Source: an uncultured Candidatus Saccharibacteria bacterium
GTDB taxonomy: Bacteria; Patescibacteriota; Minisyncoccia; UBA11713; 2-01-FULL-45-33
Assembly: GCA_964422785.1 (NCBI GenBank)
Contig: CAYRCJ010000004.1
Location: forward strand, 1 to 33,561
DNA: 33,561 nucleotides
Direction: 5' to 3'
A program made the position numbers and the translations under genes. Below the pieces are notes generated by a model. The model did not search any database, was not told the origin of the DNA, and saw only the letters and a program-made list of their open reading frames with translations. Shown here one piece after another: positions 3,057-33,188 of this stretch (its first letter is position 1; the number at the start of each line of letters is the position of its first letter).

Positions 3057-3671
3057 ATGAACAAATTCATTTTAGCCAAAAAAGTAGAAATGTCGCAGAT
3101 TTTTGATGAAGCCGGGAAAGTTCACCCGGTTACTTGGCTTTTGGCGGGTCCTATTTTTGTGACTCAAGAAAAAACCAAAGAAAAAGACGGCTATATTGCT
3201 TTGCAGGTCGGTTTCGGAGAGAAAAAGGCCAAAAATATAAATAAAGCCCAGAAAGGACATTTTAAAGATTTGGGCAATTTTGCGTTTGTAAAAGAATTTA
3301 AGGCCGAAGGAGTAGATTTAAAGAGGGGAGACAAAATTGATGTTTCTGTATTTAAAGAAGGAGATAAAGTTATGGTAAGCGGAACATCAAAGGGTAGAGG
3401 ATTTCAGGGAGTGGTAAAAAGGCATGGATTTCATGGCGGATCACGCACTCACGGCCAGAAGCACTCCGAGCGCGAAGCTGGAACTATCAGCGGAGGAACC
3501 AGAGGAGGAGGCAGAGTTCCAAAGGGGCTTCGCATGGCCGGCCGCATGGGCGGGGAGCGAGTTTCAACCGAAAATCTTAAAGTAATCAAAATAATCCCGG
3601 AACAAAATCTAATGGCGATAGAAGGTGCGATCCCGGGGCACCGCGGAAGTTTGGTGGAAGTGAGAGGATAA
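3057..3671 (+). CDS. rplC: 50S ribosomal protein L3
   Basis: 204 aa, GTSKGRGFQGVVKRHGFHGG signature, operon position. Confidence 0.95.
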   Translation: MNKFILAKKVEMSQIFDEAGKVHPVTWLLAGPIFVTQEKTKEKDGYIALQVGFGEKKAKNINKAQKGHFKDLGNFAFVKEFKAEGVDLKRGDKIDVSVFKEGDKVMVSGTSKGRGFQGVVKRHGFHGGSRTHGQKHSEREAGTISGGTRGGGRVPKGLRMAGRMGGERVSTENLKVIKIIPEQNLMAIEGAIPGHRGSLVEVRG

Positions 3672-4953: not shown

Positions 4954-5787
4954 ATGAAAACTTACGCACCAAGATCCCCATCGCGCAGACAATTAACCGG
5001 CATCAATTACCGGGAGCTTTTGACTCCGAATCGTGATCCTGAAAAGTCATTGATGCAGGGCAGAAAACGCCATGTGGGCAGAAATAATTTTGGCCGCATA
5101 ACGGTCCGCCACAAAGGAGGAGGCGCCAAAAGAATTATGAGGCTTGTTGATTTTAAATTGGATAAAAAAAATATTCCGGGACGGGTCGATTCGATTGAAT
5201 ACGATCCAAACAGAACCGCTTTTATCGGTCTGATAATTTACAGCGACGGAGAGAAGAGATATATGGTTTTACCCAAAGATATTCCTGCCGGCAGAGAGAT
5301 TTTAATATCCGATAACGCGCCGATGCTCCCGGGGAATCGTATGACTCTTTCAAAATTGCCCATTGGTACTCTAATTTACAATATTGCCATCTATCCCGAA
5401 GGCAAGGCCGCCCTAGTGCGCTCTGCCGGATCTTTTGCTACTGTAATCGCGCATGACGCCGGCTATGCCACTGTAAAATTGCCTTCCGGAGAAGTCAGAA
5501 AAATTTCAGAGAAAGCCTGGGCTTCCGTAGGCCAGGTTTCCAATGAAGAAAATAATTTGGTAGTAATCGGGAAGGCAGGCCGTTCGCGTTGGATGGGCAT
5601 TAGGCCTACAGTAAGAGGATCCGCCATGAATCCAGTCGACCATCCATATGGAGGAGGAGAGGGGCGCACAATGCGAGGGACAAGGCGTCCAAAGAACCTG
5701 TGGGGCAAGGGAACCCGCGGTGTAAAAACCAGGAACAAAAATAAATATTCCAAGAAATTTATTGTTAGTCGTAGAACTAAAAACTAA
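4954..5787 (+). CDS. rplB: 50S ribosomal protein L2
   Basis: 277 aa, [16 protein letters not shown] and [13 protein letters not shown] motifs. Confidence 0.97.
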
Positions 5788-5789
5788 TT

Positions 5790-6128
5790 ATGCCAAGAAG
5801 TTTAAAAAAAGGTCCTTATATAGATCCAAAATTGCTTAAGAAATTAAGCAGGTTTAAGGCCGGCACCGGCGCAGTAATAAAGACCTGGTCCAGGAGATCT
5901 ACGGTCAGTCCGGAGATGATAGGATACACATTCGGAGTACACAACGGAAAAGATTTTATTCCTGTTTCTATAAATGAAGAAATGGTGGGCCACAAGCTGG
6001 GAGAGTTTTCTCCAACCAGAAAATTCGTTCGTCATGGCGGTAAGATGCAAAAAGAACTGGAAATGCAGGCCAAAGAGGCGGAAAAAACCAAAACAGCGGC
6101 GCCCGCGGCCGCTCCGGCTAAAAAATAA
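5790..6128 (+). CDS. rpsS: 30S ribosomal protein S19 (with Ala/Pro/Lys-rich C-terminal tail)
   Basis: [11 protein letters not shown] ... [13 protein letters not shown], with an extra ~25-aa tail ...[18 protein letters not shown]. Confidence 0.95.
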
Positions 6129-21473: not shown

Positions 21474-21480
21474 ATATTGA

Positions 21481-21511
21481 GCCCCGACTTATCGTCGGGG
21501 CTTTTGTTTTT
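21481..21511 (+). terminator. rho-independent terminator
   Basis: GCCCCGAC / TTATC / GTCGGGGC followed by TTTTGTTTTT. The stem sequence resembles the terminator at 1234. Confidence 0.75.
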
Positions 21512-21539
21512 AGATTGTCGTTATACTATACTACGAAAT

Positions 21540-21992
21540 ATGCCAGCGAATTTTAAACCGGATATTATTACTTATACCGATGGCGGATCGCGCGGGAACC
21601 CCGGGAAGGCCGCTTTGGGTGTTGTTATCAAAGACGCCGAGGGAAATTTAATAAAAGAGTATGGAGAGGGTTTGGGGATTAAAACAAACAACGAAGCGGA
21701 ATACGCGGCGGTTGTTTCCGCGCTAAAAAAATTGAATCAAATTTTCGGGAAAGAAAAAACCAAAAAATTTAAAGTGGAAATGCGGATGGATTCGGAATTT
21801 GTTTCCAAGCAGCTGAACGGAGAATATAAAATCGAAAAAGAGCATCTTTTCCCGTTTTTTATCGCGGTATGGAATTTAAAAATGGATTTTGCTAGCATTC
21901 GCTTTGTCCATGTCCGCCGAGAGCAGAATAAAGAAGCTGACCGGATGGTCAACGAAGCTCTCGATGCCGAGCAAGGGCGATTGTGGCCTTAA
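21540..21992 (+). CDS. rnhA: ribonuclease HI
   Basis: The ATG at 21540 (MPANFKPDIITYTDGGSRGNPGKAALGVV) avoids reading through the terminator, unlike the track TTG at 21477. D-E-D-D blocks: TDGGSRGNPG, NNEAEY, MDSEFV, NKEADRM. Confidence 0.9.
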   Translation: MPANFKPDIITYTDGGSRGNPGKAALGVVIKDAEGNLIKEYGEGLGIKTNNEAEYAAVVSALKKLNQIFGKEKTKKFKVEMRMDSEFVSKQLNGEYKIEKEHLFPFFIAVWNLKMDFASIRFVHVRREQNKEADRMVNEALDAEQGRLWP

Positions 21993-26749: not shown

Positions 26750-27634
26750 ATGAAAGTATTGCTTGTTGGGCTAGGTCAAATTGGTCTTGGTCTGATCGTC
26801 CCGGTTTTTAAAAAAGCGGGCTATACAATAGTGGGCACCGACGCAAGCTCGGAGCGCCTAGACAAACTTAAGAATGAATACCTTTTAAGAACCCCGGGCG
26901 GAGTGTCAACCATCGAAATTGACGTTGCCGGCATGGACGATATAAATGGAGAATTTGATCTGATTATTACTTCGGTCGGACGGCAGCATCTCCCAAGTGT
27001 TTCCGAGTGGCTCCTGAAAAAGAATTTGTCCGCGCCGGTTTTAATGGCGGAAAATTTGCCAGATCCTGTAAATCTTTTTCCAAAACAAATTCCGATTGTT
27101 GTTGATCGCATATGTCCGAGGATAAAAATGGAAGGAACTTTTTTGACTGTGGTGGCGGAAGATTATTATAAAATTATAGTTTTGGATACCCAGCTTACTC
27201 GCCGGCTCGGAGTTTTAAGCGGCGTGGATCTGGAAAAATCTGAAGCGGTTCTGGAGTATAAGCGACGGCTGAAAATGTTTACGGTAAATACTTCGCATGT
27301 AATCACGGCCCTTTATGGCCAGCGGTTTAATTGTTCGTTGGTTGAGGAAGCGGCCGCGAGACCGGAAGTCGCCGGCAAGATTCGCTCAGCGATCGGCGAA
27401 GTCAGCCCTTGGCTCAGTTTTGGTAATCGTGAGGCCGAGATCAAGGCAAGGGAGATCATTGAGCGGTTTTCCAGTCCGATTAAGGATCCGCTTTCAAGAA
27501 TTCTTGGACCCACAAATCGTAAATCCGCCCTTCGATATATCGAAGTTCCGCTTCGGGCCGTTAAAGCATCTGGCTTTCCTGCCCCTACATTGGAGGAAGC
27601 TTATAGGATTATTAATAGCGAGCCGATTAATTAA
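26750..27634 (+). CDS. mannitol-1-phosphate 5-dehydrogenase-family (MtlD-like) oxidoreductase, compact
   Basis: 294 aa. From memory of E. coli MtlD these blocks correspond: GLGQIGLG~GAGNIGRG, MAENL~ACENM, VVDRICP~AVDRIVP, FTVNTSHVITALYG~FTLNTGHAITAYLG, RFSSPIKDP~RFENPYLKD. Confidence 0.6.
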   Translation: MKVLLVGLGQIGLGLIVPVFKKAGYTIVGTDASSERLDKLKNEYLLRTPGGVSTIEIDVAGMDDINGEFDLIITSVGRQHLPSVSEWLLKKNLSAPVLMAENLPDPVNLFPKQIPIVVDRICPRIKMEGTFLTVVAEDYYKIIVLDTQLTRRLGVLSGVDLEKSEAVLEYKRRLKMFTVNTSHVITALYGQRFNCSLVEEAAARPEVAGKIRSAIGEVSPWLSFGNREAEIKAREIIERFSSPIKDPLSRILGPTNRKSALRYIEVPLRAVKASGFPAPTLEEAYRIINSEPIN

Positions 27635-27640
27635 ATTAAA

Positions 27641-27666
27641 AGAGGGGAAATTACCCCTCTTTTTTG
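27641..27666 (+). terminator. rho-independent terminator
   Basis: AGAGGGG / AAATTA / CCCCTCT followed by TTTTTG. Confidence 0.7.
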
Positions 27667-27686
27667 TTTATGTTATACTCCATAGT

Positions 27687-28262
27687 ATGGACGGAAAGCA
27701 TATACATCTGAAATATAAGATTTGCGTTTCTGGAGCGGCCGAGACCGATTTTTGCGCTCCCGATTCTTTAGAGAAAGGCAAAGAGCTGGGAAAGGAAATA
27801 GCTTCGCATAATTCCGTTTTAGTTACCGGGGCTACCACCGGTTTTCCGATGTGGGCGGCGATGGGCGCTAAAGAAGCCGGAGGATTTTCTATTGGTTTGT
27901 CTCCGGCGGGCTCCGAAAAAGAACATATAGAAAATTATAAACTGCCGATAGATTTTATGGATGTAATTATTTATACCGGCTTTGGATATTCCGGCAGAAA
28001 TCTTTTGCTTACCAGATCGGCGGATGCGGTAATCTTCGGATGTGGCCGCTGGGGCACTCTAAATGAGTTTACAATCGCGCTTGAAGACGGAAAGCCAATG
28101 GGGGTTTTGGAAGGAGAAGAAGAGGGGAGCATGGACTTGGTGAAAGATATTTTGGAAAAATCTCACCGCGGTCCCGGAAATATTGTTTATGATAAAGATC
28201 CAAAGGCTTTGGTGGAAAAAGTTTTGGAACTTATTAAAAAAGAAAAAATTATTAAAGTTTAA
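27687..28262 (+). CDS. TIGR00725/LOG-like (SLOG Rossmann) family protein
   Basis: The ATG at 27687 (MDGKHIHLKYKICVSGAA...) follows the terminator. The track ORF from 27315 reads through mtlD-like and the terminator. LVTGATTGFPMWAAMGAKEAGG and GRWGTLNEF blocks. Confidence 0.7.
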   Translation: MDGKHIHLKYKICVSGAAETDFCAPDSLEKGKELGKEIASHNSVLVTGATTGFPMWAAMGAKEAGGFSIGLSPAGSEKEHIENYKLPIDFMDVIIYTGFGYSGRNLLLTRSADAVIFGCGRWGTLNEFTIALEDGKPMGVLEGEEEGSMDLVKDILEKSHRGPGNIVYDKDPKALVEKVLELIKKEKIIKV

Positions 28263-29871: not shown

Positions 29872-30462
29872 ATGTTCGATTTAGTTTCACTAATAAAAAC
29901 TGCCGGATACTTGGGGATTTTCGCGATTATCTTTGCTGAATCTGGAGTTTTGGTGGGTATTTTTTTTCCGGGAGATTCTTTGCTTTTTACAGCAGGCCTT
30001 TTGGCTTCCCAGGGATTTTTAAATATTTTTATACTAATACCAGTCATTTTTTTAGCCGCGGTCTTGGGGGATAATTTTGGTTACTTTTTTGGAAAAAAGA
30101 TAGGGCCGAAAATCTTTACCAAAGAAGACTCCTTTTTCTTCAGCAAAGATCATATTGTAAGAGCCGAAAGTTTTTATGAAAAGTATGGCAAAAAGACTAT
30201 AGTCATTGTGCGCTTTATTCCTGTCATCAGAACTATTGCTCCGATATTGGCGGGAGTGGGTAGGATGAAATACTCTGTTTTTTTTATTTTTAATATCATG
30301 GGCGCTTTTCTTTGGGGTGTAGCAATCACATGGGCCGGATACTATTTGGGAAAAGTATTGCCCAATTTTGATAAACTTATTTTGCCCATCGTTTTGGGGA
30401 TTATTATTGTTTCTACAATTCCCGCGATTTTCTTTGCCAGGGGAGCCAAAAAGACCCATTGA
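29872..30462 (+). CDS. dedA: DedA family (SNARE-associated) membrane protein
   Basis: 196 aa, GYLGIFAIIFAESGVLVGIFFPGDSLLFTAG ... FIPVIRT. Confidence 0.88.
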   Translation: MFDLVSLIKTAGYLGIFAIIFAESGVLVGIFFPGDSLLFTAGLLASQGFLNIFILIPVIFLAAVLGDNFGYFFGKKIGPKIFTKEDSFFFSKDHIVRAESFYEKYGKKTIVIVRFIPVIRTIAPILAGVGRMKYSVFFIFNIMGAFLWGVAITWAGYYLGKVLPNFDKLILPIVLGIIIVSTIPAIFFARGAKKTH

Positions 30463-30486
30463 CAAATATTTTAAAAGGAGTATAAT
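30459..30486 (+). promoter_or_regulatory. near-consensus sigma70 promoter for the DGR target gene (TTGACA-N16-TATAAT)
   Basis: TTGACA at 30459-30464 overlaps the dedA stop. TATAAT at 30481-30486. Both hexamers are perfect consensus. Confidence 0.65.
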
Positions 30487-30516
30487 CAAAACAAAGTTCT
30501 TTACACAAACTTGCGC

Positions 30517-30568
30517 TTCGCCACAGCAAAAAGAGGCTTACTTATAAGCAGTTTTTTGCTGTGGCGAA
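30517..30568 (+). promoter_or_regulatory. long hairpin in the 5' leader of the DGR target gene
   Basis: TTCGCCACAGCAAAAA (30517-30532) pairs perfectly with TTTTTGCTGTGGCGAA (30553-30568), 16 bp. The 20-nt loop contains a further GCTTA/TAAGC 5-bp stem. No T-run follows. Confidence 0.6.
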
Positions 30569-30628
30569 AGCCAAAATCAAACAGCAAAAGGACAAAGTTC
30601 GAAAGAACATGTCTAGAAGGAGAAAACA

Positions 30629-31291
30629 ATGAGCGATGATTTGATGCTCGATGTTGGACAAGCAAACGAATTAAAACTTTCTTTCCGCCGGAATGGGTGG
30701 AAGACAAATGAGGAAATCAAGCGTTTGAGTGAAGGAAGTTTGCTCGCCGGCGTTTTGAGTGTCCTCAACGGCACCGCCAAGATCAAACCCATCACCGAAG
30801 ACGCCTCTCGCTGGATCACTCTCAACGAAACCACCATCGCTGTAAACCTCGCCGCCACTCCGAACCTTCCGTTCAACGAAGCAAAAATCGAAAAACATAT
30901 CGGCGAAGGTTGGGTAATTGTTGAAAAACGACCCGACGGACTCTACATCAGCGGCCGCAAAGTAATCATCCACCTCTCCAAACGCCAAAGGGGCGCAAAA
31001 TCACTGGGTGGCCATGAACTTCGCGATGAACTTACAGGAAAACCAGTCCTCAATTCCAACATCCTGGACGCTCTTTATGGGAATCCGCATTTGATTCCCG
31101 AAGACTGGAAGAAAGATGAAAATGGAAACACCATCTACATTTTCTTCTGGGGCACCCTCTACCGCGACTCGGACGTCAATCTCTACGTTCGTTGCTTATA
31201 CTTCTTCGGTGGCAGGTGGTACCGGCTCTACGGTTGGCTTGACTACGGTTGGAGTGGCAATAACCCTGCGGCTTTGCTCGCAAGTATTTAG
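30629..31291 (+). CDS. DGR variable (target) protein, 220 aa, VR at the extreme C-terminus
   Basis: AGGAG RBS 7 nt upstream. The last ~41 codons are the VR copy of the downstream TR. No signal peptide or TM segment visible. N-terminal ~175 aa unrecognised. Confidence 0.88.
   Translation: MSDDLMLDVGQANELKLSFRRNGWKTNEEIKRLSEGSLLAGVLSVLNGTAKIKPITEDASRWITLNETTIAVNLAATPNLPFNEAKIEKHIGEGWVIVEKRPDGLYISGRKVIIHLSKRQRGAKSLGGHELRDELTGKPVLNSNILDALYGNPHLIPEDWKKDENGNTIYIFFWGTLYRDSDVNLYVRCLYFFGGRWYRLYGWLDYGWSGNNPAALLASI
31160..31283 (+). repeat. DGR variable region (VR)
   Basis: 124 nt aligning without gaps to 31644-31767. There are 14 mismatches, all where TR has A. It ends 5 nt before the stop codon. Confidence 0.92.
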
Positions 31292-31297
31292 TTCTTC

Positions 31298-31340
31298 GGA
31301 CTAGGCCACTTTGACCTTTTTGAAACTTTGGCCTTAGTCC
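31298..31340 (+). other. hairpin 15 nt downstream of VR (candidate DGR target-recognition cruciform)
   Basis: GGACTAGGCC (31298-31307) pairs with GGCCTTAGTCC (31330-31340), 10 bp with a 1-nt bulge and a 22-nt loop. Confidence 0.45.
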
Positions 31341-31379
31341 TTTGATTCCGAATTTTGGGAAATATAAATTTGTTTCCAG

Positions 31380-31405
31380 CCCCGCATCTTGCGGGGCCTT
31401 TTTTT
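31380..31405 (+). terminator. rho-independent terminator of the target gene
   Basis: CCCCGCA / TCT / TGCGGGG, then CC and a T7 run. Confidence 0.8.
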
Positions 31406-31643
31406 GTGATAAAATAAAAAAGGCAGTAGGTGAATACGCGAGAGACTACGGTTTCTCGCTACCGAAACCAGTATCCATACATCGAGAGTATCTACGACTA
31501 AGGTTTTGGATAGAGTGGTGTATGCAGAAACTTCATCAAAAAATGAAAATACTTGGTGTAAGGCACTATCGCATTACGATGCGGAATTCTATACAATCCT
31601 GAGAGTATTCGAAGGATGGTGGCCCGGGAGGTGCTTTACACGC

Positions 31644-31767
31644 AAACCGCAACTCGGACGACAATCTCTACGTTCGTTACTTATACTTCAACGATGGCAG
31701 GTGGTACCGGAACTACAATTGGCTTGACAACGATTGGAATGGCAATAACCCTGCGGCTTTGCTCGCA
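31644..31767 (+). repeat. DGR template repeat (TR), non-coding
   Basis: Invariant master copy of VR. In the VR reading frame it is rich in AAC/AAT codons (N R N S D D N L Y V R Y L Y F N D G R W Y R N Y N W L D N D W N G N N P A A L L A). Confidence 0.92.
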
Positions 31768-31774
31768 ACTCTTT

Positions 31775-32080
31775 TCATTTCTCTCCCAGCTTTTTGTTGG
31801 GAGAGTTTTGTTTACCATGAATTTGTTGAAGATCTTTCGCAAGCTGCCCGCTCCATCCTCCGAGCATACGCCCGATCTCATCTATTTTTACCGAAAGTGC
31901 TATATATTTTTTGTTGTCTATTGATTTTGTTTCCCATAAAACCATGAGCAATATTTTTAGAGTATCCATTTTTCTTATTGCCAATCTCACCCAGGGATGT
32001 TTCTCTTCTCTAGATAAAAAACTTGCAATAGATACGGCTTCTATTGTTTCTACAAAAAGAACGTCAATCCGCTGACCCAA
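31775..32080 (-). CDS. avd: DGR accessory variability determinant (Avd-like four-helix-bundle protein), 5' end uncertain
   Basis: The C-terminal helix KIDEIGRMLGGWSGQL matches the EVGRILGSWI helix of Bordetella phage BPP-1 Avd. LPKIHRHSLGQRIDVLF aligns with IPRKHGVAREMF. The frame stays open upstream to 32206 and encodes a plausible helix 1 (LLQKIKSAYLVWYGYYQALPK). No ATG/GTG/TTG occurs there, and the listed start at 32080 is a TTG. Confidence 0.8.
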   Translation of the reverse strand: MGQRIDVLFVETIEAVSIASFLSREEKHPWVRLAIRKMDTLKILLMVLWETKSIDNKKYIALSVKIDEIGRMLGGWSGQLAKDLQQIHGKQNSPNKKLGEK

Positions 32081-32172
32081 AGAATGCCGATGTATTTTTG
32101 GCAGAGCCTGATAGTATCCATACCAAACAAGATATGCACTTTTTATTTTTTGAAGAAGAGGTAGAACAGTGC

Positions 32173-32182
32173 GGGGGGGGGG
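32173..32182. repeat. G10 homopolymer (C10 on the avd strand)
   Basis: Ten consecutive G in an AT-rich genome. The tract lies inside the open upstream extension of avd and 13 nt upstream of the RT ATG. Confidence 0.9.
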
Positions 32183-32195
32183 TATTATATGGAAT

Positions 32196-33188
32196 ATGGC
32201 TTTGATTCAATTCGCCCATACATATAAGGATATCATTTCCTTGGAAAATCTACTCGAGGCCTGGAAAGAATTTATAAATGGCAAAAGATCTCGCAAAGAT
32301 GTCCAAGAGTTTGAGAGAAATTTAATGAATAATATAATTTCGCTACATCTGGATCTTGCGACAAAAATCTACAAACACTCTTCGTACGAGGCTTTCAACA
32401 TCTCCGACCCGAAGCCGAGAAACATTCACAAAGCAAGGGTGAGAGATAGATTGTTGCATCACGCAATCTATAGAAAATTTTATCCTTTTTTTGAAAGAAC
32501 ATTCATTGCAGATTCCTATTCATGCCGATTAAGAAAGGGTACACATAAAGCAATCAACGTATTTCACTCGTTTATAGGCAAAGAATCAAAAAATCATACA
32601 AAGACCGTCTTTGTCCTAAAGTGCGATATAAAAAAGTTTTTTGCAAATATTGATCACGGCATACTTCTGGAAATAATCAGAAGTTGTATCCCGGACCGCG
32701 ATATTCAGCGGCTTATATCGGAAGTTGTGGAGAGCTTTCATTCAACAAGCGTCGGCGTTGGGCTTCCTTTGGGAAATCTTACTTCCCAGCTTTTGGTGAA
32801 TATTTATATGAACAGATTTGACCAATTCGTGAAGCATAAGCTCAAAGCAAAATACTATATTCGCTATGCGGATGACTTTGTTATATTGTCGCAAGATAAA
32901 AAATGGCTTGAAGATATATTGCTTCGCATAAAAGATTTTTTATTGACTAATCTAAAACTAGAGCTTCATCCCGATAAAGTTTCCATTAAAACAGCGGCGT
33001 CCGGTATTGATTTTTTGGGGTGGGTTCATTTTTCCGATCACCGAGTTTTACGAACAACAACCAAAAAGAGAATGTTTAAGCGACTCGAAACATATTCTAA
33101 AAAGCCGGAGATGGTCAATTCATATCGCGGATTATTACAGCATGGCAATGCCTATAAAATTCTACAATTGATTGATGAAACAGGTTAA
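32196..33188 (+). CDS. DGR reverse transcriptase
   Basis: 330 aa from the ATG at 32196 (the track GTG at 32169 adds 9 aa across the G-tract). RT motifs: PKPRNIHKARVRDRLLHHAI, SYSCRLRKGTHKA, LKCDIKKFFANIDH, GLPLGNLTSQLLVNIYMNRFD (DGR-type [I/L]GxxxSQ), YIRYADDFVIL (YxDD), LELHPDKVSI, GIDFLGW. Confidence 0.95.
   Translation: MALIQFAHTYKDIISLENLLEAWKEFINGKRSRKDVQEFERNLMNNIISLHLDLATKIYKHSSYEAFNISDPKPRNIHKARVRDRLLHHAIYRKFYPFFERTFIADSYSCRLRKGTHKAINVFHSFIGKESKNHTKTVFVLKCDIKKFFANIDHGILLEIIRSCIPDRDIQRLISEVVESFHSTSVGVGLPLGNLTSQLLVNIYMNRFDQFVKHKLKAKYYIRYADDFVILSQDKKWLEDILLRIKDFLLTNLKLELHPDKVSIKTAASGIDFLGWVHFSDHRVLRTTTKKRMFKRLETYSKKPEMVNSYRGLLQHGNAYKILQLIDETG

Follow-up and report, generated by a model that had tools for sequence, protein, structure and literature searches.

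The window (the whole 33,561-nt stretch of DNA that was analyzed) contains, near its end, a target gene with a variable region (VR), a non-coding template repeat (TR), a reverse transcriptase (RT) of the type found in diversity-generating retroelements (DGRs), an Avd homologue, and covarying RNA structure around the TR, all of which were directly seen. The genes and DNA elements are as follows.

30459 to 30486, plus strand: putative target-gene promoter, TTGACA-16-TATAAT, matching the consensus at 12 of 12 positions
30629 to 31291, plus strand: target (variable-protein) gene, an ORF of 220 aa
31161 to 31283, plus strand: VR, final 41 codons of the target gene, from alignment to the TR; may start at 31159
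31255 to 31283, plus strand: invariant G+C-rich 3' segment of the VR, equal to the TR 3' end, putatively IMH-like
31298 to 31340, plus strand: imperfect hairpin with an 11-bp stem (DNA fold of -7.5 kcal/mol, z = -3.0)
31379 to 31407, plus strand: hairpin and T-run resembling an intrinsic terminator, predicted from sequence to close the target transcript
31646 to 31768, plus strand: TR, non-coding, from alignment to the VR
31775 to 32219, minus strand: avd (accessory variability determinant), from Avd profile matches, with the start assigned from relatives
32196 to 33188, plus strand: DGR RT, 330 aa from the ATG at 32196 (Pfam RVT_1, E = 7.5e-24)
32769 to 32789, plus strand: LGNLTSQ (motif-4 block), located in the RT
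32865 to 32876, plus strand: YADD, located in the RT

We obtained a gapless 123-nt alignment of the VR with the TR, offset by 485 nt, confirming that the repeat in the preliminary description is real, although its length had been given as 124 nt and its offset as 484 nt. Machine alignment also upheld the claims that the 220-aa ORF ends in the VR and that the two copies differ only at TR adenines: all 13 of the 13 mismatches lie at TR adenines (33 of the 123 TR nucleotides are A; hypergeometric P = 4.7e-9), and all fall at codon positions 1 or 2. The TR adenines are clustered in equivalents of AAC, AAT, GAC, GAT, and TAC codons. Two extra A-type mismatches at 31159 and 31160 may extend the pair. 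The homology breaks off sharply after ...GCTCGCAA, a ...CGCAA boundary common to most related loci, and the invariant segment at 31255 to 31283 would act as the IMH. A search of the whole window found no second VR. Inverted repeats like the hairpin at 31298 to 31340 were noticed by eye in relatives. Lying just 3' of the VR and the stop codon, this hairpin is a candidate DGR target-site hairpin or cruciform.

The best PDB match of the RT, whose longest ORF begins at GTG 32169, was 8ub7_A (E = 3e-43), which we take from the aligned sequence to be the bRT of the Bordetella phage (328 aa). Among RTs of other kinds, group II intron RTs reached 7.7e-18 at best and retron-named RT chains 1.1e-17 (5hhl), and defence RTs likewise scored no better than 7.7e-18. 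The block LGNLTSQ corresponds to IGSLTSQ of the BPP-1 bRT. By these PDB sequence-match scores the RT groups with DGR RTs and not with group II intron or retron RTs, and the 330-aa length and both motifs reported earlier were confirmed. Homologues of this RT number in the thousands in Patescibacteria at about 70% identity, the nearest being 73% identical.

It is hardly credible that the RT represents a retron, group II intron, or defence RT system with a coincidental repeat, or that the cassette is carried by a phage or mobile element. Source annotations of the homologues do read "retron-type" or "group II intron" RT, and NCBIfam returned sub-threshold matches to group II, Drt, and retron models, whereas these are all far under the cut-offs (e.g., 143 versus 300 bits), the BPP-1 bRT tops the structural-database matches by 25 orders of magnitude, and neither intron RNA domains nor Rfam matches were detected. 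A retron, group II intron, or defence RT identity is refuted by bRT as the best match together with the A-only mismatch pattern (P = 5e-9). Regarding carriage, the nearest relatives in IMG/VR are just 47 to 62% identical, synteny with host genes is kept among relatives, and no integrase, transposase, or phage genes occur in the 30 kb upstream (the downstream sequence spans only about 370 nt), in agreement with the earlier statement that housekeeping genes flank the element. Indeed, its neighbours encode a DedA/VTT-domain protein and UDG, and further upstream lie genes for MgtC, a permease, NDK, an RNase J-like protein, ComEC, PGK, SecY, ribosomal proteins, and EF-Tu. UDG also adjoins the DGR in locus L002, and in L012 it lies in the same stretch, some 1 kb upstream from the VR. 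The element resides in a cellular chromosome.

In 61 related loci the order of target with VR, TR, avd (minus strand), and RT is the same throughout, and in each of them at least 80% of the VR/TR mismatches are at TR adenines. We therefore have high confidence that the locus is a chromosomal DGR belonging to a very large Patescibacteria-specific DGR clade; the A-restricted mismatches, the DGR-like RT, the Avd homologue, and the Patescibacteria relatives all bear out the original call of a genuine DGR. The element itself is ordinary, being a new member of a DGR clade with a literature record: "DGR clade 2" comprises cellular, CPR-restricted DGRs with targets without known domains (Roux et al. 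2021, PMC8144416), so that the surprise first attached to the locus was too high. The first survey of Patescibacteria DGRs was that of Paul et al. 2017, cited in Roux et al. 2021 (PMC8144416). Like that clade, the element has a cellular and not a viral context, an RT with thousands of Patescibacteria counterparts at about 70% identity, and a small target without a recognizable domain or transmembrane segment, and no feature at the locus distinguishes it from the rest of the Patescibacteria clade.

Sequence searches of the target protein against Pfam, NCBIfam, and PDB gave no match and no known domain. Its 328 homologues are all Patescibacteria hypothetical proteins of about 220 aa, the nearest with 77% identity. 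An AlphaFold2 model of the target (pLDDT 91) gave no significant match in a Foldseek search, nor did its fold significantly match C-type lectin DGR targets. VR turnover was visible in a relative population with RT P0061, in which TR and RT protein are identical across samples, yet three different VRs occur, differing almost exclusively at TR-adenine positions.

Around the TR, we identified the following elements of a putative DGR RNA.

31407 to 31415, plus strand: extended -10 element TGnTAAAAT of the putative TR-RNA promoter, from conservation among relatives
31422 to 31641, plus strand: structured 5' domain of the DGR RNA, from RNAalifold and covariation
31439-46/31451-58, 31476-83/31517-24, and 31489-98/31503-12, plus strand: 5' domain helices, first set, from the alignment fold
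31556-67/31630-41, 31570-74/31579-83, and 31596-603/31610-17, plus strand: 5' domain helices, second set, from the alignment fold
31541 to 31549, plus strand: 5' arm of the TR-closing helix (AAATGAAAA), partner of 31772 to 31780, from predicted fold and covariation
31772 to 31780, plus strand: 3' arm of the TR-closing helix (TTTTCATTT), directly 3' of the TR, from predicted fold and covariation
31781 to 31813, plus strand: conserved, terminator-like stem-loop (CTCTCCCA...TGGGAGAG), then TTTTGTTT, from covariation

Alignment A4 of 43 loci shows a conserved TGnTAnAAT motif about 7 nt before a conserved GGnAGTAGGTG, which points to a transcription start near 31422. The TR would thus be carried on a separate RNA of about 390 nt (about 31422 to 31813, both ends predicted). 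For the 5' domain, RNAalifold gave 48 pairs with compensatory changes in 42; 96.9% of cells were paired versus 33 to 52% with slid partners, and the observed values were reached in 0 of 500 shuffles. A single-sequence fold recovered the same helices, and comparison of the domain with Rfam yielded no family match. The TR-closing helix was 90% paired versus about 50% when slid, with compensatory changes in six of its nine pairs, including an A-U in the window that replaces a consensus G-C. The stem-loop at 31781 to 31813 (seven pairs, five with compensatory changes) is a candidate Avd-binding stem-loop; it overlaps the avd 3' end on the opposite strand, and its 3' arm and U-tract, read on the minus strand, code for KQNSP, the conserved tail of Avd. 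A conserved structured RNA adjoining an RT gene recalls the Rfam RT-1 to RT-19 motifs, which are structured RNAs beside bacterial RT genes (Weinberg et al. 2017, PMC5737381). Membership of RT-7 or another RT motif was rejected: the weak local match to RT-7 scored 18.4 bits, far under the gathering score of 116.8, and 16 related loci gave no Rfam match at gathering thresholds.

The Avd homologue was confirmed in the frame at 31778 to 32170 (Pfam bAvd, 43.4 bits with a cut-off of 40; NCBIfam DivGenRetAVD, E = 1.3e-16, model positions 1 to 102 of 104). The start codon assigned to avd is the ATG at 32219 to 32217, antisense to RT codon 8, and avd and the RT start therefore overlap head to head. 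In the assembly the Avd body (32170 to 31778) is not in frame with this ATG. The Avd-like ORF noted at the outset thus holds as a homologue, although it lies on the minus strand, has just 101 aa from its canonical start (TTG 32080), and is unjoined to the ATG; full Avd homology needs the frame to be read up to 32170. Likewise, all four parts of the DGR that had been called complete are present, whereas avd is out of frame at the following tract.

32173 to 32182, no strand assigned: homopolymer tract seen in the sequence, a G10 run on the RT strand that reads as C10 (poly-Pro codons) in the avd 5' end

The tract lies 13 nt upstream of the RT ATG. With G10 the avd product is 51 aa, and with G9 or G12 a full Avd of 147/148 aa. 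Of 85 loci, about 80 carry a repeat where avd and the RT gene meet, usually a poly-G tract of 7 to 14, with (GGCT)n in four loci, (GATTGCT)n in one, and (GT)n in one; 92 of the 95 G/C runs of at least 8 nt in 748 kb are at this junction. All 7 of the 7 outgroup loci that lack the repeat carry an in-frame ATG at the homologous position. In the repeat-bearing loci the frame from ATG to tract is open in 60 of 60, and the Avd body is in frame in only 13 (13/60 versus 7/7, Fisher P = 9e-5, for loci that are phylogenetically related). Matched antisense 13-codon blocks within the RT are stop-free 58% of the time, and the open frame is less striking than it appears. Among contigs with 100% identical RT, tract length differs in 4 of 4 sets, three of which combine full-length avd alleles (132 to 134 aa) with truncated ones, as natural ON and OFF forms. 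In one relative each of the three frames has an ATG, by which an on/off switch would be defeated there.

We consider it probable that the C10 tract is a slipped-strand on/off switch of Avd and hence of mutagenesis. Simple-sequence contingency loci undergo slipped-strand phase variation, e.g., at poly-G/C ORF tracts in Neisseria, Haemophilus, and Campylobacter. As in such loci, the avd repeat has a unit that is not a multiple of three, lies within the first ~20 codons of the ORF, differs in type at one site across lineages, and varies in length between sequences that are otherwise the same, so that some alleles are in frame and others are not. In most known cases, from host-associated pathogens, contingency loci gate surface structures, restriction-modification systems, or methyltransferases, whereas the gated gene here is a targeted-mutator cofactor in free-living or episymbiotic groundwater bacteria, and the alleles seen are those of separate contigs, reversible switching within a clone being a proposal.

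The out-of-frame avd might instead be an assembly or sequencing error, the true tract being in frame (e.g., G9) and the element constitutively competent without regulation. Homopolymers of 8 to 14 G are error-prone and their length is a base call prone to assembly mistakes, the tract differences among contigs are mostly 1 to 3 nt, and Avd is clearly under purifying selection among relatives (60 to 80% identical, no internal stops). We regard this as unlikely, since about 80 loci, sequenced in many projects and different years, have the repeat at exactly the same site, 2-, 4-, or 7-nt repeats replace the homopolymer in six loci, the consensus is in frame in only 13 of 60 repeat-bearing loci but in 7 of 7 repeat-less relatives, and relatives show G10 in agreement in eight independent assemblies and G11 in two. 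Nor does a decaying DGR remnant, with avd pseudogenized and the VR/TR differences as fossils of earlier activity, seem at all probable. Beyond the broken frame, it could draw on two other relative populations in which the VR is constant across samples while tract length varies, which also means that tract variation alone is no sign of activity. Against it, the locus retains an intact and conserved RT, Avd body, TR, and RNA structure as well as intact, conserved promoter and terminator elements, a one-nucleotide change in a hypermutable tract restores avd, and the VR turns over in a close relative.

Poly-G/C tracts tune expression at the Neisseria porA and opc and the Bordetella fim promoters. 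The repeat could similarly be a spacer of an RT promoter, its length tuning RT expression rather than the avd frame, which we find possible, if doubtful. Of 59 poly-G loci, 33 have a TAnnnT hexamer directly after the tract; in 15 of these 33 the hexamer stops 7 nt short of the RT ATG, suggesting a leaderless mRNA, and in 22 of them it is 17 to 19 nt from a conserved CTGGYA. The window itself shows G10-TATTAT-N7-ATG. CTGGYA also encodes a conserved Leu-Pro codon pair of Avd, however, so that its conservation needs no promoter; moreover, flank and tract length show no clear compensation (r = -0.19), and the 24- to 77-nt repeats of six loci are unfit as a 17-nt spacer. Promoter and frame-shift readings are compatible, and both could act. 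RNA polymerase slippage is promoted by long homopolymers in other reduced genomes, and most consensus alleles are out of frame despite avd conservation, as expected if the tract were a programmed transcriptional slippage or ribosomal frameshift site that yields some full-length Avd from every allele, a low-Avd rheostat without a heritable switch. This is improbable, given that tetra-, hepta-, and dinucleotide repeats are no classical polymerase or ribosome slippage sites and that heritable length differences between populations are observed.

The element resembles the BPP-1 DGR (mtd-avd-TR-brt) in full-length RT homology, including the motif-4 [LIV]GxxxSQ block, in the presence of an Avd family member, and in adenine-specific VR/TR differences that fall at codon positions 1 and 2, with an invariant VR 3' segment. 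Its predicted, covarying TR-closing helix and stem-loop 3' of the TR also have counterparts in the BPP-1 DGR RNA, with its duplex of TR-upstream and TR-downstream sequences and a stem-loop just 3' of the TR (bioRxiv 10.1101/2023.10.23.563531). Unlike the phage-borne BPP-1 DGR, it is chromosomal; avd lies downstream of the TR but on the opposite strand, overlapping the RT start and interrupted by a repeat tract; the TR RNA apparently forms a transcript of its own, antisense in its 3' part to the 3' end of avd; a structured 5' RNA domain of ~220 nt stands where BPP-1 has avd coding sequence; and the target is no tail-fibre protein, nor could a C-type lectin match be detected for it. The whole clade shares the head-to-head overlap of avd and the RT, the repeat within avd, and the structured 5' RNA domain, features for which no description was found in the searchable literature, Paul et al. 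2017 being outside its scope.

By analogy with the BPP-1 DGR, we propose that the TR RNA would be transcribed from its own extended -10 promoter to the terminator-like stem-loop, and that its 5' domain, TR-closing helix, and 3' stem-loop would dock the RT-Avd complex. The RT would copy the TR into cDNA with misincorporation opposite adenines, and this cDNA would replace the VR, with the invariant 3' segment and perhaps also the post-VR hairpin as guides, rewriting up to about 20 codons of the 220-aa target protein. Translation of avd would begin at the ATG antisense to RT codon 8 and pass through the C10 tract, where slipped-strand length changes would turn Avd, and with it mutagenesis, on or off. 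The assembled tract would be of an OFF length, at which only 51 aa would be made. If the tract is indeed such a switch, the element is poised, not active, in the majority genotype.

The reverse transcriptase (RT) is assigned to the diversity-generating retroelement (DGR) lineage by its ranking of PDB chains and by its motifs. Its best match among all PDB chains was the 328-aa reverse transcriptase of 8ub7 (8ub7_A; E = 3e-43), whose aligned sequence (IGSLTSQ, YMDD) we take to be Bordetella phage BPP-1 bRT. Next came group II intron RTs (7.7e-18 or weaker) and a retron-named RT chain (1.1e-17), with retron Ec83, Cas1-fused, and Drt RTs lower in the list. LGNLTSQ at 32769-32789 aligns with IGSLTSQ of bRT, the motif-4 [LIV]GxxxSQ block, and the catalytic YxDD is YADD at 32865-32876; both motifs had been named in the preliminary description and are located here. 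Three other RT classes were rejected on NCBIfam scores, namely, group II intron RT (group_II_RT_mat, 143 bits against a cut-off of 300), defence RT (Drt3a, 76 against 200), and retron RT (retron St85, 65 against 235), and no Rfam intron or retron RNA was found in the window.

Features of the DGR in the window
30459-30486, plus strand: consensus promoter of the target gene (predicted)
31379-31407, plus strand: terminator of the target gene (predicted)
31407-31641, plus strand: extended -10 promoter, then a conserved ~220-nt RNA domain that adjoins the template repeat on its upstream side
starting at 32196, plus strand: RT, 330 aa, best read from the ATG at 32196, with a Pfam RVT_1 match

A repeat search of the window detected a direct repeat of ~129 nt (31161-31289 versus 31646-31774), and machine alignment in register placed the variable region (VR) at 31161-31283 and the template repeat (TR) at 31646-31768, i.e., 123 nt with an offset of 485 and 13 mismatches. 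The VR had been described as 124 nt long and repeated 484 nt downstream; each of these values was off by one, and the description was otherwise accurate. All 13 mismatches carry A in the TR copy, which has 33 A in 123 nt (hypergeometric P = 4.7e-9), and the claim that VR and TR differ only at TR adenines is upheld by this alignment. Five mismatches fall at codon position 1, eight at position 2, and none at position 3, converting TR-encoded Asn, Asp, and Tyr codons (AAC, AAT, GAC, GAT, and TAC) to other residues. Two further A-type mismatches at 31159-31160 may lengthen the pair. The 3' 29 nt of VR and TR are identical and G+C-rich, with divergence starting directly after ...GCAA, and are a candidate IMH/IMH*, and a hairpin downstream of VR at 31298-31340 (z = -3.0) is a candidate DGR target-site hairpin or cruciform. 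Self-comparison of the whole window revealed no second VR. With a DGR-type RT, an A-restricted TR/VR pair, and VR at the 3' end of the target gene, the DGR interpretation of the preliminary description was correct, and the element is a genuine DGR, ordinary for Patescibacteria.

VR covers codons 178 to 218 of the 220-aa target ORF (30629-31291). The family of this target comprises hypothetical proteins of ~220 aa, and the columns that vary in their alignment are those of the TR adenine codons. The target had no sequence match in Pfam, NCBIfam, or PDB. A confident AlphaFold2 model of the full-length protein (pLDDT 91) is helical in its N-terminal part and beta-rich in the middle, with VR on a C-terminal unit of two helices and four strands (helix-helix-four-strand). 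In Foldseek searches, this model had no match with E < 0.1 in PDB or BFVD, with C-type lectins appearing only at E > 1 (TM 0.3 to 0.4), and the C-terminal 109 residues modelled alone (poor, pLDDT 67) had no significant PDB match. A C-type lectin or any other fold is therefore unassignable from the two models; it has been suggested that such target domains may be new C-Lec variants (Roux et al. 2021, PMC8144416). The 5' untranslated region of the gene, just downstream of the perfect consensus promoter at 30459-30486, contains a 24-nt inverted repeat (30517-30568; 88% complementary, 4-nt loop) that could be a regulatory hairpin or operator.

The genes upstream of the DGR encode EF-Tu, ribosomal proteins, SecY, adenylate kinase, Map, PGK, GalT, ComEC, an RNase J-like enzyme, NDK, MgtC, a permease, and DedA, and UDG lies downstream. 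We found no phage, integrase, or transposase genes in the window, in agreement with the earlier statement that the neighbours are housekeeping genes. Among related DGR loci, L002 repeats the order beta-CASP nuclease, SLOG-cluster-4 protein, permease, UDG, and DGR, L012 has the shorter run of SLOG-cluster-4 protein, permease, UDG, and DGR, and the DGR of L001 is flanked by DedA, GalT, and PGK. This recurring host-gene order argues for the DGR being a stable chromosomal resident. Two further observations concern the upstream region. An RNase H/RVT_3-type gene, probably housekeeping, lies 10 kb upstream of the DGR (21477-21992), and its RNase H activity could be relevant to cDNA processing. Besides, the ORFs 26750-27634 and 27315-28262, one with weak mannitol-dehydrogenase matches and the other with a SLOG cluster-4 domain, overlap by ~320 nt on the same strand in different frames, which may be due to a frameshift or to a start called at the wrong place.

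The RT has at least 8,000 homologues at E < 1e-20, the best of which, the window's own protein aside, are 65 to 74% identical and, where named, almost all from Patescibacteria. Relatives in IMG/VR were more distant (best 47 to 62% identical). There was no near-identical relative of the window genome, the best being 73% (RT) and 77% (target) identical. Scanning a single genome for each species gave 80 loci, most of them labelled Patescibacteria or unclassified bacterium and a few assigned to other phyla. We applied a detector based on simple self-alignment to 85 sequences (84 related loci and the window), and 61 of them had VR, a same-strand TR ~470 nt downstream, avd (accessory variability determinant) on the opposite strand, and then RT, each with at least 80% of VR/TR mismatches at TR adenines. 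DGR clade 2 of Roux et al. 2021 (PMC8144416) is almost entirely cellular, restricted to Patescibacteria/CPR, and has targets without recognisable domains; the window element matches this description and is thus a further member of an already known DGR group. A DGR in a CPR genome by itself adds nothing new, since CPR genomes are known to be rich in DGRs, and the interest lies in clade-wide features that the window exemplifies, i.e., a head-to-head avd/RT overlap, a repeat within avd, and an apparently separate TR RNA. One relative, L014, has a second A-biased TR/VR pair (TR/VR at 5791/5009) and two extra G10 tracts (3404-3413 and 5253-5262) away from the avd/RT junction, and may carry a second DGR or more repeat-gated genes.

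Alignment of 43 loci revealed that ~240 nt upstream of TR is conserved, opening with TGnTAnAAT ~7 nt before a conserved GGnAGTAGGTG. In this 5' domain, RNAalifold predicted six helices with 48 pairs in total, and compensatory changes occurred at 42 of these pairs; 96.9% of cells were paired versus 33 to 52% with partners slid by 1 to 3 columns, double changes numbered 378 versus at most 95 in the slid controls, and none of 500 shuffles reached the observed values. Directly 3' of TR, all loci share a CTCTCTTCATTTCTCTCCC-loop-GGGAGAGTTTTGTTTT element, and the window copy was scored as an intrinsic terminator (31781-31805, with a T-rich tail). In addition, a closing helix is formed between the 5'-domain block AAATGAAGA (window 31541-31549, AAATGAAAA) and TCTTCATTT just past TR (window 31772-31780, TTTTCATTT), with 90% of cells paired versus ~50% when slid and compensatory changes at 6 of 9 pairs; the window has A-U where the consensus has G-C. 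The option that the AAAAATGAAG block pairs instead with the U-tract of the terminator was rejected, as it depends on G-U pairs. Since the target-gene promoter and terminator bracket the target, TR appears to be transcribed separately, as an RNA of ~390 nt with predicted ends. [quoted passage not shown] Rfam gave nothing at gathering thresholds in the window or 16 relatives, and no family covers the template RNA; permissive matches at 31280-31451, in the target-gene terminator region, reflected hairpin-plus-T-run similarity and were dismissed, as was an RT-7 match of 18 bits. The compact, strongly covarying TR RNA would offer a defined RNA-protein system to compare with the only DGR whose structure has been characterised.

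On the other strand (31775-31815, minus strand), the 3' stem and U-tract of this RNA (31772-31813, plus strand) also code for KQNSP, the conserved tail of Avd, so the stretch has two functions; among relatives, the avd stop codon shifts position within the 3' hairpin. Read from its first canonical start, the Avd-like ORF on the minus strand is 101 aa long, and its match to the bAvd profile is limited to the C-terminal two thirds. The frame is open further upstream, and a 131-aa reading (32170-31778) matches the whole bAvd profile (43.4 against a cut-off of 40) and NCBIfam DivGenRetAVD from end to end (E = 1.3e-16, yet below the cut-off of 80). An Avd homologue is clearly present; its family assignment comes from Pfam and NCBIfam only, and searches with the single sequence and with a 17-sequence profile gave no match to solved structures.

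We considered whether any upstream ATG in any frame could serve avd, and rejected this idea because the required tract change was inconsistent between loci; about one third of loci were in frame, which is the chance expectation. It was replaced by a conserved ATG that was identified via repeat-less outgroups. All seven of these distant relatives (L105, L106, L108, L109, and L111 to L113) start avd on the opposite strand at an ATG that lies a few codons into the RT gene and shares the frame of the Avd body. In the repeat-bearing clade, the window included, the homologous avd ATG lies opposite the His codon at position 8 of RT (CAT), which is conserved in most relatives, and in the window avd and RT overlap head to head by 24 nt (32196-32219). 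As assembled, the window has the Avd body out of frame with this start codon.

Between the Avd body and the RT ATG lies a run of G10 on the RT strand (32173-32182; C10 within the 5' end of avd, a repeat whose unit is not divisible by three), at about codons 13 to 17 of avd counted from the ATG at 32219. Nearly all related DGRs (loci L001 to L104 and L185 to L195) have a simple repeat at the avd/RT junction: by locus, poly-G of 7 to 14 in 73, (GGCT)n in 4, (GATTGCT)n in 1, and (GT)n in 1. The 748 kb of sequence fetched contained 95 G/C runs of at least 8, and 92 of these were at this junction, always with G on the RT strand. In a rival reading that we find suggestive but not compelling, the tract acts as a promoter spacer on RT. 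Also in support of the avd start codon, the frame from the ATG to the repeat was free of stops in all 60 loci having the RT His-8 codon, and the other two frames were open in 10 and 4 of them; as a caveat, matched antisense blocks inside RT, used as a control, were stop-free 58% of the time. This ATG frame leads into the Avd body in 13 of the 60 loci, and the other 47 are one or two nucleotides out of frame, compared with 7/7 in frame in the repeat-less outgroup (Fisher P = 9e-5). In the window, G10 leads to a 51-aa out-of-frame peptide, and G9 and G12 would give an Avd of 147 and 148 aa, respectively. Transcriptional slippage at the tract is another rival reading.

We further compared tract lengths within four sets of contigs encoding an identical RT protein, which are relatives and not the window's own population. 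The length differed in all four sets, from G8 to G11 overall.

Tract lengths (number of contigs) in sets with an identical RT protein
P0091: G10 (8), G11 (2)
P0018: G8 (4), G9 (2), G10 (1), G11 (3)
P0061: G9 (3), G10 (1), G11 (2)
P0069: G8 (1), G10 (1), G11 (3)

In three of the four sets, one length gives an Avd of 132 to 134 aa and the other lengths give products of 21 to 46 aa; the remaining set has ATGs in all three frames. An assembly error at the tract is a rival explanation for these length differences and for the frame of the window. We infer from the comparative data that the tract may be a contingency-type (phase-variation) switch on avd. Separately, L091 has a G9 run in the target-gene region (1265-1273) that is absent from other contigs of the P0091 set.

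In the P0061 contigs (L185 to L190, from GROS21-1 samples), TR and the RT protein are the same throughout, and three VR alleles occur between samples, one of them with a length difference of 2 nt. The alleles differ almost exclusively at TR-adenine positions, which indicates that the clade is active in nature. In P0091 and P0018, VR is identical across samples and tract length varies, which fits long silent periods. The P0061 contigs are a natural series for relating VR turnover to tract length.

Tentatively, and with confidence a little short of even, we propose that throughout this clade a hypermutable repeat in the first ~20 codons gates avd, that a stochastic, heritable switch would pick the cells able to hypermutate, and that the tract of the window has an OFF length. 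In the searchable literature, such gating is undescribed, like the avd/RT overlap and the self-contained structured TR RNA. No paper in that literature, to which the primary CPR DGR survey (Paul et al. 2017) does not belong, ties phase variation or simple-sequence repeats to DGRs.

On sampling, DGRs mostly look silent, and to our knowledge little has been established about how cells control DGR activity. If our reading of the tract as a switch is true, a slippery repeat in avd would be a simple genetic explanation for silent DGRs, in which VR would stay stable in most cells and diversification would start again in a minority.
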